Of a stretch of 64,000 nucleotides of DNA, positions 25,594 through 28,762 are shown piece after piece. The stretch is taken from the NCBI RefSeq assembly GCF_003334255.1, contig NZ_QOWU01000021.1; one strand, written 5' to 3'. The notes beneath the pieces are model-generated. The model ran no database searches. It saw only the letters and a list, made by a program, of their open reading frames with translations, and was not told the DNA's origin. The DNA is from Escherichia coli. Lineage in GTDB: Bacteria > Pseudomonadota > Gammaproteobacteria > Enterobacterales > Enterobacteriaceae. The number at the start of each line of letters is the position of its first letter. The first letter of the stretch is position 1. A program made the position numbers and the translations under genes.

Positions 25594-25665
25594 CCTCTTC
25601 TGCGGGAGAGGATCAGGGTGAGGAAAATTTATGCCTCACCCTCACTCTCTTCGTAAGGAGAGAGG
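25594..25665. repeat. GC-rich multi-hairpin palindromic element between gcvH and gcvP
   Basis: gggtgagg-N10-cctcaccc perfect 8-bp stem flanked by imperfect cctcttc/gagagg-type inverted repeats; shares GGGTGAGG core with the element downstream of gcvP. Confidence 0.6.
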
Positions 25666-25701
25666 TTCACAATTCACTGCACGTTTCAGGAACCATCGCT
25701 C

Positions 25702-28575
25702 ATGACACAGACGTTAAGCCAGCTTGAAAACAGCGGCGCTTTTATTGAACGCCATATCGGACCGGACGCCGCGCAACAGCAAGAAATGCTGAATGCCGTT
25801 GGTGCACAATCGTTAAACGCGCTGACCGGCCAGATTGTGCCGAAAGATATTCAACTTGCGACACCACCGCAGGTTGGCGCACCGGCGACCGAATACGCCG
25901 CACTGGCAGAACTCAAGGCTATTGCCAGTCGCAATAAACGCTTCACGTCTTACATCGGCATGGGTTACACCGCCGTGCAGCTACCGCCGGTTATCCTGCG
26001 TAACATGCTGGAAAATCCGGGCTGGTATACCGCGTACACTCCGTATCAACCTGAAGTCTCCCAGGGCCGCCTTGAAGCACTGCTCAACTTCCAGCAGGTA
26101 ACGCTGGATTTGACTGGACTGGATATGGCCTCTGCTTCTCTTCTGGACGAGGCCACCGCTGCCGCCGAAGCAATGGCGATGGCGAAACGCGTCAGCAAAC
26201 TGAAAAATGCCAACCGCTTCTTCGTGGCTTCCGATGTGCATCCGCAAACGCTGGATGTGGTCCGTACTCGTGCCGAAACCTTTGGTTTTGAAGTGATTGT
26301 CGATGACGCGCAAAAAGTGCTCGACCATCAGGACGTCTTCGGCGTGCTGTTACAGCAGGTAGGCACTACCGGTGAAATTCACGACTACACTGCGCTTATT
26401 AGCGAACTGAAATCACGCAAAATTGTGGTCAGCGTTGCCGCCGATATTATGGTGCTGGTGCTGTTAACTGCGCCGGGTAAACAGGGCGCGGATATTGTTT
26501 TTGGTTCGGCGCAACGCTTCGGCGTGCCGATGGGCTACGGTGGCCCACACGCGGCATTCTTTGCGGCGAAAGATGAATACAAACGCTCAATGCCGGGCCG
26601 TATTATCGGTGTATCGAAAGATGCAGCTGGCAATACCGCGCTGCGCATGGCGATGCAGACTCGCGAGCAACATATCCGCCGTGAGAAAGCGAACTCCAAC
26701 ATTTGTACTTCCCAGGTACTGCTGGCAAACATCGCCAGCCTGTATGCCGTTTATCACGGCCCGGTTGGCCTGAAACGTATCGCTAACCGCATTCACCGTC
26801 TGACCGATATCCTGGCGGCGGGCCTGCAACAAAAAGGTCTGAAACTGCGCCATGCGCACTATTTCGACACCTTGTGTGTGGAAGTGGCCGACAAAGCGGG
26901 CGTACTGACGCGTGCCGAAGCGGCTGAAATCAACCTGCGTAGCGATATTCTGAACGCGGTTGGGATCACCCTTGATGAAACAACCACGCGTGAAAACGTA
27001 ATGCAGCTTTTCAACGTGCTGCTGGGCGATAACCACGGCCTGGACATCGACACGCTGGACAAAGACGTGGCTCACGACAGCCGCTCTATCCAGCCTGCGA
27101 TGCTGCGCGACGACGAAATCCTCACCCATCCGGTGTTTAATCGCTACCACAGCGAAACCGAAATGATGCGCTATATGCACTCGCTGGAGCGTAAAGATCT
27201 GGCGCTGAATCAGGCGATGATCCCGCTGGGTTCCTGCACCATGAAACTGAACGCCGCCGCCGAGATGATCCCAATCACCTGGCCGGAATTTGCCGAACTG
27301 CACCCGTTCTGCCCGCCGGAGCAGGCCGAAGGTTATCAGCAGATGATTGCGCAGCTGGCTGACTGGCTGGTGAAACTGACCGGTTACGACGCCGTTTGTA
27401 TGCAGCCGAACTCTGGCGCACAGGGCGAATACGCGGGCCTGCTGGCGATTCGTCATTATCATGAAAGCCGCAACGAAGGGCATCGCGATATCTGCCTGAT
27501 CCCGGCTTCTGCGCACGGAACTAACCCCGCTTCTGCACATATGGCAGGAATGCAGGTGGTGGTTGTGGCGTGTGATAAAAACGGCAACATCGATCTGACT
27601 GATCTGCGCGCGAAAGCGGAACAGGCGGGCGATAACCTCTCCTGTATCATGGTGACTTATCCTTCTACCCACGGCGTGTATGAAGAAACGATCCGTGAAG
27701 TGTGTGAAGTCGTGCATCAGTTCGGCGGTCAGGTTTACCTTGATGGCGCGAACATGAACGCCCAGGTTGGCATCACCTCGCCGGGCTTTATTGGTGCGGA
27801 CGTTTCACACCTTAACCTACATAAAACTTTCTGCATTCCGCACGGCGGTGGTGGTCCGGGTATGGGACCGATCGGCGTGAAAGCGCATTTGGCACCGTTT
27901 GTACCGGGTCATAGCGTGGTGCAAATCGAAGGCATGTTAACCCGTCAGGGCGCGGTTTCTGCGGCACCGTTCGGTAGCGCCTCTATCCTGCCAATCAGCT
28001 GGATGTACATCCGCATGATGGGCGCAGAAGGGCTGAAAAAAGCAAGCCAGGTGGCAATCCTCAACGCCAACTATATTGCCAGCCGCCTGCAGGATGCCTT
28101 CCCGGTGCTGTATACCGGTCGCGACGGTCGCGTGGCGCACGAATGTATTCTCGATATTCGCCCGCTGAAAGAAGAAACCGGCATCAGCGAGCTGGATATT
28201 GCCAAGCGCCTGATCGACTACGGTTTCCACGCGCCGACGATGTCGTTCCCGGTGGCGGGTACGCTGATGGTTGAACCGACTGAATCTGAAAGCAAAGTGG
28301 AACTGGATCGCTTTATCGACGCGATGCTGGCTATCCGCGCAGAAATTGACCAGGTGAAAGCCGGTGTCTGGCCGCTGGAAGATAACCCGCTGGTGAACGC
28401 GCCGCACATTCAGAGCGAACTGGTCGCCGAGTGGGCGCATCCGTACAGCCGTGAAGTTGCGGTATTCCCGGCAGGTGTGGCAGACAAATACTGGCCGACA
28501 GTGAAACGTCTGGATGATGTTTACGGCGACCGTAACCTGTTCTGCTCCTGCGTACCGATTAGCGAATACCAGTAA
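25702..28575 (+). CDS. gcvP: glycine dehydrogenase (decarboxylating), P protein
   Basis: 957-aa [47 protein letters not shown]... Confidence 0.97.
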
Positions 28576-28597
28576 TTCACTGATTCGACTATTTTCT

Positions 28598-28620
28598 AAA
28601 GGCGCTTCGGCGCCTTTTTA
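28598..28620 (+). terminator. intrinsic terminator of gcvTHP
   Basis: aaaggcgc-ttcg-gcgccttttt perfect hairpin with T-tract, 22 nt after gcvP stop. Confidence 0.88.
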
Positions 28621-28653
28621 GTCAGATGACAAAGTACAAAAGTGCTCAGACAG

Positions 28654-28762
28654 TCCCCTCGCCCCTTTGGGGAGAGGGTTAGGGTGAGGGGAACAGGCCG
28701 GCACTGGCGCGAATATTTACCCTCACCCCGGCCCTCTCCCTGAAAGGGCGAGGGGGAAAAGC
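28654..28762. repeat. ~110-bp GC-rich imperfect palindrome (two inverted ~37-bp units with GGGTGAGGGG core)
   Basis: cccctcgcccctttggggagagggttagggtgagggg ... ccctcaccccggccctctccctgaaagggcgaggggg are near reverse complements. Confidence 0.6.

Follow-up and report, generated by a model that had tools for sequence, protein, structure and literature searches.

A putative degenerate BoxC pair at an RNA 3' end between gcvH and gcvP of Escherichia coli

Introduction

Why is gcvP of Escherichia coli flanked by two GC-rich palindromes, one inside the gcvTHP operon and the other just beyond its terminator? Do the two belong to a known family of repeats, and could the copy within the operon influence the fate of the message? 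We addressed these questions in a stretch of 64,000 nucleotides of E. coli contig NZ_QOWU01000021.1 (assembly GCF_003334255.1), referred to here as the window, whose gcv region corresponds to about 3.044-3.052 Mb of E. coli K-12 in reverse orientation. A preceding inspection of the letters, here called the sequence-only reading, had pointed out two palindromic elements around gcvP. Both exist, one at 25593-25664 between gcvH and gcvP and one at 28655-28757 downstream of gcvP.

We favour, with moderate confidence, the view that each of the two elements consists of a pair of inverted copies of BoxC, a repeat of enterobacteria, and that the hairpins of the intra-operon pair create or protect a 3' end of gcvTH RNA, uncoupling it from gcvP. 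The copy inside the operon probably helps to set the survival of the gcvT/gcvH message relative to that of gcvP. BoxC has been described under four names (BoxC, PIT, TMECO and HPGQ) with no function established. The claim is a modest one, concerning a known family in the best-studied bacterium, and it offers a possible explanation for uneven expression within gcvTHP.

Results and Discussion

The element downstream of gcvP is a catalogued BoxC pair

The downstream element is a 103-bp imperfect palindrome with arms of 39 nt that are 82% complementary, and its predicted fold reaches -76.1 kcal/mol (z = -7.25). To which family does it belong? Comparison with the small repeat families of E. coli, a step already suggested by the sequence-only reading, gives a clear answer. 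The repeat was first named BoxC, then PIT, and was renamed TMECO by Holder et al. 2015, with the consensus CCCTCNCCC-N3-6-GGGNGAGGG-N3-GGGNGAGGG (PMC4666352). Two exact matches to this consensus lie in the element, at 28656-28690 on the plus strand and at 28720-28754 on the minus strand, where shuffles of the window lead one to expect none. The plus-strand copy, of type A with a TTA loop (28656-28691), is identical to entry #11 in Table 1 of Holder et al. (K-12 3,046,087-3,046,052; PMC4666352) and corresponds to HPGQ 33. The minus-strand copy, of type B with a CCG loop (28719-28754) and inverted relative to type A, is identical to entry #10 (K-12 3,045,989-3,046,024; PMC4666352) and corresponds to HPGQ 32. 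A BoxC profile, made from 21 other K-12 copies and run over the 64-kb window, recovers them with E = 2e-12 and E = 1e-9, respectively; neither copy entered the model.

The arrangement of the pair agrees with the family as well. Holder et al. count five inverted A+B pairs in K-12, #10 and #11 among them, and derived their control oligonucleotide from a sequence the same as window 28656-28691 (PMC4666352). Kaplan et al. 2016 (PMC5100583) place HPGQ 33 and 32 between ygfF and gcvP as candidate G-quadruplexes. In 5409 of the 5426 complete E. coli genomes that we compared, a 116-bp query spanning the downstream element has matches at a median of 17 sites per genome (21 in K-12), the dispersed, multi-copy behaviour of a repeat with some 20-30 copies per E. 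coli genome; older BoxC lists hold 32 copies (cited in PMC2267715). The element is therefore an already catalogued, canonical member of BoxC, of type A on the plus strand plus type B on the minus strand. Our contribution here is the family name only, and no function has been demonstrated for this pair.

The element begins 35 nt past the gcvP terminator and the mapped end of the gcv transcript at 28620. Because the terminator RNA end maps to that position, the downstream pair lies outside the main gcv transcript. The E. coli K-12 record NC_000913.3 annotates neither of the two elements.

The element between gcvH and gcvP resembles a degenerate BoxC pair

The intra-operon element occupies 72 bp (25593-25664) inside the 118-bp spacer between gcvH and gcvP, and forms three successive predicted hairpins. 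For the complete spacer the predicted energy is -44.3 kcal/mol (z = -4.35), a value not matched by any of 200 shuffles. Hairpin 1 (25593-25612, plus strand; UCCUCUUC-UGCG-GGAGAGGA; -11.8 kcal/mol, z = -3.3) starts 9 nt past the gcvH stop codon. The central hairpin (25615-25642, plus strand; AGGGUGAGG, a 10-nt loop, then CCUCACCCU; -15.7 kcal/mol, z = -4.9) is built by the inner GGGTGAGG blocks of two inverted half-elements, and hairpin 3 (25645-25664, plus strand; CUCUCUUC-GUAA-GGAGAGAG; -11.9 kcal/mol, z = -4.5) follows. The window contains five copies of the block GGGTGAGG, a number that no shuffle reached (1.05 expected), and four of the five fall within the two elements. The sequence-only reading had described the two as strongly structured, non-coding, mutually related and unlike REP, and it was right on each point.

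Could the intra-operon element, too, be BoxC? The two halves of the element are the third and fourth best matches to the BoxC profile in the 64 kb, and they lie on opposite strands, as expected for an inverted pair. Both matches are weak: the left half, on the plus strand, scores 13.1 bits (E = 0.0068), and the right half, on the minus strand (25635-25665), scores 4.3 bits (E = 3.9). At the same site, between gcvH and gcvP, Enterobacter cloacae, Enterobacter asburiae, Enterobacter wuhouensis and a Pseudocitrobacter assembly carry canonical BoxC pairs scoring 22-33 bits per half, and other genomes carry one BoxC copy or a partial copy in this spacer. The E. coli spacer is collinear, block by block, with these same-site pairs and with the pair between gcvP and ygfF. 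Hairpin 1 corresponds to a degenerate version of the BoxC hairpin 'CCCTCNCCC / GGGNGAGGG' and aligns with CCCTCTCCC-N4-GGGAGAGGG of the canonical pairs of other genera, its outer pair having changed from C-G to U-A on both sides. Hairpin 3 corresponds to a degenerate outer hairpin of the minus-strand half-element, and here again, compared with the canonical CCCTCTCC/GGAGAGGG, a C-G pair has become U-A through changes on both sides.

Given the profile matches, the canonical pairs at the same site and the block alignment, we read the intra-operon element as an old, degenerate BoxC pair that has become fixed in E. coli. It retains the layout of an inverted pair, with loops ATCA and TCA. Most of its CCC/GGG triplets have been shortened, by which the proposed triplex and quadruplex motifs are lost and the hairpins are retained. 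Arms of the type ccctctcc/ggagaggg, which the sequence-only reading had seen in both elements, are intact in the downstream one; in the intra-operon one they are present in the shortened versions cctcttc/ggagagg and ctctcttc/ggagagag. The two elements are thus not equivalent members of the family, one being canonical and catalogued, the other degenerate and found once per genome.

Other families were considered for both elements. Membership in REP/BIME, defined by a 35-40 bp unit with a GCCGGATG...CATCCGGC core, was ruled out on sequence, as was membership in ERIC. The motif GCCGGATG occurs 10 times in the window, and not once inside 25584-25701 or 28620-28842. A scan of 23000-30000 against Rfam at permissive thresholds returned nothing at the gathering score (best 33.5 bits versus 77.5), and sub-threshold hits to long-hairpin microRNA models were taken as chance. 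As to the REP elements said to exist elsewhere in the window, three GCCGGATG cores of alternating orientation lie within 190 bp at 62139-62326 and form a REP/BIME-like cluster.

In one strain, VTB96775v (L085:2426-2595), the gcvH-gcvP spacer measures 170 bp instead of 118 bp. It contains a 52-bp extra palindromic unit that duplicates and inverts part of the element, and the palindrome is evidently able to rearrange.

Conservation of the intra-operon element

Is the intra-operon element maintained? Every one of the 5426 complete E. coli genomes carries it, as a single copy. To compare its constraint with that of the surrounding genes, we used 7 E. coli haplotypes that differ pairwise at up to ~10% of four-fold sites. 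Among 302 four-fold sites, taken from gcvH and the first 1380 nt of gcvP, 54 vary (18%), whereas none of the 50 stem positions of the hairpins does (Fisher p = 2e-4), a result to be read with the caveat that palindromes can self-correct via template switching. Loop positions vary at 5 of 18 (28%), and the remaining spacer positions at 0 of 50. Among full-length matches over the 5426 genomes the lowest identity class is 96.6%, which corresponds to the four loop differences of the sampled haplotypes.

Comparison beyond E. coli points in the same direction. The central stem is identical in the 7 haplotypes and in a sister Escherichia (L004), and its loop differs at 4 positions. In this sister lineage, at a four-fold divergence of ~0.2, both arms of the central stem are unchanged, and the loop and the outer hairpins have been remodelled. 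A consensus fold of 9 species with BoxC-type spacers keeps all three hairpins, with 6 pairs changed on both sides. We take these alignments as a sign of purifying selection on the intra-operon stems, to be judged knowing that the flanks are equally invariant and that the haplotypes number 7.

An RNA 3' end lies inside the intra-operon element

Does the element leave a trace in the RNA? Term-seq data of Adams et al. 2021 (PMC7815308, supplementary file 1) contain a 3' end at window position 25646 on the plus strand (K-12 3049097, minus strand). It lies 4 nt past the central hairpin, two bases into hairpin 3, and 63 nt past the gcvH stop codon, and is labelled 'orphan' only because 63 nt exceeds the 50-nt limit for 'primary' ends (PMC7815308). 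The coordinate 3049097 has three entries in this file, which holds one sheet per growth condition, with an average of 412,219 reads in LB at an optical density (OD) of 0.4 and 171,112 in another entry (PMC7815308). The gcvP terminator end reaches 36,065 reads in LB at OD 0.4, which makes the end at 25646 about 11 times higher (PMC7815308). The Rho-score tables of the same study hold no entry for it, and in the literature we found nothing that links gcvH to RIL-seq or Hfq data. The suggestion made from the letters, that the intra-operon copy could affect mRNA stability, is consistent with so strong a 3' end inside the element.

This behaviour is shared by other members of the family. Six further BoxC or BoxC-like copies in K-12, all outside the window, have Term-seq 3' ends 3-10 nt after the hairpin, at 3781065(+), 3959467(-), 847200(-), 4231270(-), 632098(+) and 2945855(-) (PMC7815308), a pattern suggesting that BoxC copies, when transcribed, may often set the ends of RNAs.

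How might the end at 25646 arise? In the model that we favour, the intra-operon element would be transcribed as part of the gcvTHP mRNA, and its hairpins would create or protect the 3' end. The most likely route, by analogy with REP elements, would be that 3'-to-5' exonucleases are blocked following cleavage downstream; termination independent of a U-tract appears less likely. By either route gcvT-gcvH RNA would outlast or outnumber gcvP RNA, with a possible effect on the GcvT/GcvH : GcvP ratio; this effect, like the origin of the end, we infer. REP elements provide the precedent for exonuclease barriers, acting as intercistronic stabilisers of mRNA, for example between malE and malF. In plant mitochondria H protein is needed in excess over P protein. 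A scan of 25500-28900 for promoters and terminators found no promoter-like and no terminator-like site in either element. We favour the exonuclease barrier because the spacer has no U-tract or terminator-like site and because PIT elements had no terminator activity (PMC4666352).

Several observations weigh against the interpretation of the intra-operon element as a BoxC pair that shapes the gcvTH message. As regards its family, the strict three-block consensus finds no match in it, and it is missing both from Table 1 of Holder et al. 2015 (PMC4666352) and from the portion of the HPGQ table of Kaplan et al. 2016 that was compared (PMC5100583). In BLAST searches of the 5426 genomes (E <= 0.01) its sequence matches its own locus only, with a median of 1 place. 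Recognition of the element as a repeat by sequence similarity alone was rejected on this ground, and recurrence across the genome, which the sequence-only reading had made the check on both elements, is seen for the downstream one and not for the intra-operon one. As regards mechanism, no U-tract directly follows the central hairpin, where the tail reads CACUCUCUUCG, and the layout is not that of an intrinsic terminator. PIT elements (Hoyne and Maher 2000/2002) were found to act neither as promoters nor as terminators and to be without effect in vivo, as related in PMC4666352. The end at 25646 also precedes hairpin 3, at which an exonuclease arriving from downstream should stall first; this position implies that the RNA is cut inside hairpin 3 or directly ahead of it, or that termination is of an unusual kind. 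The constraint comparison draws on few haplotypes, and because the flanking parts of the spacer outside the stems show no more variation than the stems do, the constraint may not be specific to the hairpins. A structured element is not universal at this site, either, given that two Erwinia species apparently have ~20 nt between gcvH and gcvP, at loci whose gcvH end was estimated and does not fall on a stop codon. Finally, our search of the literature yielded no usable data on the GcvT/H/P stoichiometry of E. coli.

The gcvH-gcvP spacer across species

How general is a structured spacer after gcvH? We extracted gcvH-gcvP spacers from 80 species (L003-L082). A z-score below -2 was obtained for the fold of the spacer in 55 of 77 species, and the source of the structure differs among them: BoxC-like sequence in 11 species, REP-like sequence in 15, hairpins with T runs in at least 14, and another palindrome, sometimes with an ERIC core, in 7. 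REP occupies the same spacer in Citrobacter, Lelliottia, Trabulsiella and some Enterobacter, and Photorhabdus, Providencia, Serratia, Yersinia, Dickeya and Shewanella have a hairpin with a T run after gcvH. That structure is common at this junction could reflect either selection for it or a tolerance of insertions at the site.

Close relatives, too, can differ in the repeat that they carry. Within Enterobacter, BoxC is found in E. cloacae, E. asburiae and E. wuhouensis, and REP in E. quasihormaechei. Two REP units take the place of BoxC in the 162-bp spacer of six assemblies (L087, L089-L093) whose GcvH matches E. coli GcvH exactly; this spacer is very similar to the one in Citrobacter werkmanii (L003). 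In Citrobacter youngae CCUG 30791, Citrobacter sp. Awk 4 and Kluyvera, an ERIC core sits inside another palindrome that begins with ATACGC.

A wider proposal, which we put forward tentatively and hold to be possible rather than probable, is that the gcvH-gcvP junction repeatedly recruits whatever palindromes are available (BoxC, REP, ERIC-bearing palindromes or terminator-like hairpins) as an RNA 3'-end or stability element that keeps the gcvT/gcvH message above that of gcvP. In that case E. coli would have domesticated its BoxC pair, with selection holding the hairpins and the triplex and quadruplex motifs left to decay. If true, this would be the first cellular role for a BoxC element, and it would suggest that BoxC copies generally define RNA 3' ends where they are transcribed.

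The intra-operon element can also be read as a decayed BoxC insertion that has no role, with the 3' end being a decay intermediate of the kind that piles up at any stable hairpin, without consequence for expression. Reporter tests gave BoxC/PIT no function (PMC4666352), and a spacer occupied by differing repeat families in different species, almost absent as it appears in the two Erwinia, is what an insertion-tolerant site would look like. Against a neutral relic stand the invariant stems and flanks, next to four-fold sites of which 18% vary and loop positions of which 28% vary. The element is also fixed in 5426 of 5426 genomes, while the downstream pair is absent from its locus in ~44% of them, and its 3' end has ~11 times the reads of the operon terminator end. 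We consider this explanation rather improbable.

The downstream pair belongs to a variable segment

How constant is the canonical pair at its locus? Collinearity across gcvP, the BoxC pair and ygfF (segment 28621-29640) is seen in 3027 of the 5426 complete E. coli genomes. In O157:H7 F6294 (L083) and in strain N1 (L084), bglA directly follows gcvP across a 165-bp spacer of different sequence with a REP-like hairpin. Because only those 3027 genomes are collinear, and because F6294 and N1 carry a replacement, we conclude that the downstream BoxC pair belongs to a variable BoxC-plus-ygfF segment that many strains lack, which agrees with the variability reported around TMECO loci (PMC4666352). A simple BoxC-mediated deletion behind the ygfF polymorphism was considered and rejected, the O157 allele replacing the whole segment from the gcvP terminator to bglA.

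Do the elements, then, act as DNA? Triplexes, G-quadruplexes or cruciforms might stall polymerases or promote rearrangement, and so have a role or a cost in replication or recombination. TMECO consensus oligonucleotides form intrastrand triplexes in vitro, and TMECO loci are more variable between strains (PMC4666352); the HPG1/HPG2 quadruplex motifs undergo an ion-dependent switch between G-quadruplex and hairpin, according to Kaplan et al. 2016 (PMC5100583). The downstream pair, moreover, sits in a segment missing or replaced in ~2400 genomes, and the 52-bp palindromic expansion in one strain shows the intra-operon element rearranged. In vivo, however, dimethyl sulphate footprinting gave no support for a stable triplex (PMC4666352), and the intra-operon copy has lost the required G3/C3 runs and yet is the better conserved of the two. 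The ygfF polymorphism, for its part, swaps a whole segment and shows no clean deletion at the BoxC pair. A function at the level of DNA thus seems unlikely to us.

Least likely is an effect on translation, in which a hairpin close to the gcvH stop codon would hinder terminating ribosomes and lower GcvH, or would alter access to the gcvP ribosome-binding site: hairpin 1 does start at 25593 after a stop codon ending at 25583, the repeat begins ~6-12 nt after the stop codon in most Enterobacteriaceae spacers read, and a REP within ~15 nt of a stop codon reportedly lowers output through ribosome hindrance (Liang, Rudd and Deutscher 2015, Mol Cell), but the gcvP Shine-Dalgarno sequence (25688-25691) is 24 nt past the element and unpaired with it in the predicted folds, and such an effect alone does not explain the abundant end at 25646.

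Neighbouring features of the locus

The operon comprises gcvT (24076-25170), gcvH (25194-25583, the stop codon included) and gcvP (25702-28575), and is followed by ygfF (28842-29585) and by bglA on the minus strand, convergent with ygfF. The intrinsic terminator of gcvTHP, at 28598-28620 on the plus strand, consists of AAAGGCGC-TTCG-GCGCCTTT and a T run; its hairpin (28598-28617) folds at -12.7 kcal/mol. This is the layout of an intrinsic terminator, a GC-rich hairpin with a direct U-tract, and the 'primary' Term-seq 3' end of gcvP (K-12 3046123) maps to window 28620.

The gcvP leader (25667-25701, plus strand), the ~35 nt before the start codon, does not vary among the E. coli haplotypes that we compared and hardly varies across Enterobacteriaceae. 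Within it lie the Shine-Dalgarno sequence AGGA (25688-25691) and possibly a weak hairpin, UUCACUG/CAGGAA. In the consensus fold UUCACUG is paired with CAGGAA, which includes the gcvP Shine-Dalgarno sequence; the pairing is predicted, in sequence that offers no covariation.

Further Term-seq ends lie at the start of the operon, one 65 nt inside gcvT at window 24141 (K-12 3050602) and an 'orphan' in the gcvT leader at about window 24020 (K-12 3050723). With ~80,000-106,000 reads they are on a par with other ends of that strand, and they could represent premature termination or processing at the operon start. Between the convergent ygfF and bglA lies a perfect small hairpin, ccggatgcaa-caagta-ttgcatccgg (29606-29631). 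Next to this hairpin, at window 29599, falls the 'primary' Term-seq 3' end of bglA (K-12 3045144), and the hairpin is probably a shared terminator.

Comparison with known systems

What do these findings add to the family? The intra-operon copy is a degenerate member beyond the TMECO list, at one of the stronger RNA 3' ends of the region, and its stems, together with the 3' ends at several BoxC copies, provide a testable case for REP-like behaviour of BoxC hairpins at the level of RNA.

Three known systems invite comparison. Intrinsic terminators and attenuators between cistrons share with the intra-operon element a stable hairpin just upstream of a mapped 3' end. They differ in that the central hairpin of E. 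coli is without a U-tract, the terminator scan is empty in the spacer, and PIT elements showed no activity as terminators in reporter work (PMC4666352). REP/BIME stabilisers are likewise GC-rich palindromic repeats between cistrons, with an RNA 3' end a few nt past the hairpin, but they come from a different sequence family, neither of our elements having a GCCGGATG-type core; in PMC4666352 no test of RNA stabilisation by BoxC is reported. Closest is BoxC/PIT/TMECO/HPG itself. The downstream pair is like it in exact sequence, in inverted A+B pairing, in its intergenic site and in occurring at ~20 copies per genome. The intra-operon copy is like it in block order and in the layout of an inverted pair, and differs from it in its eroded G/C triplets, in failing the consensus, in being single by BLAST, and in its position inside a transcribed operon.

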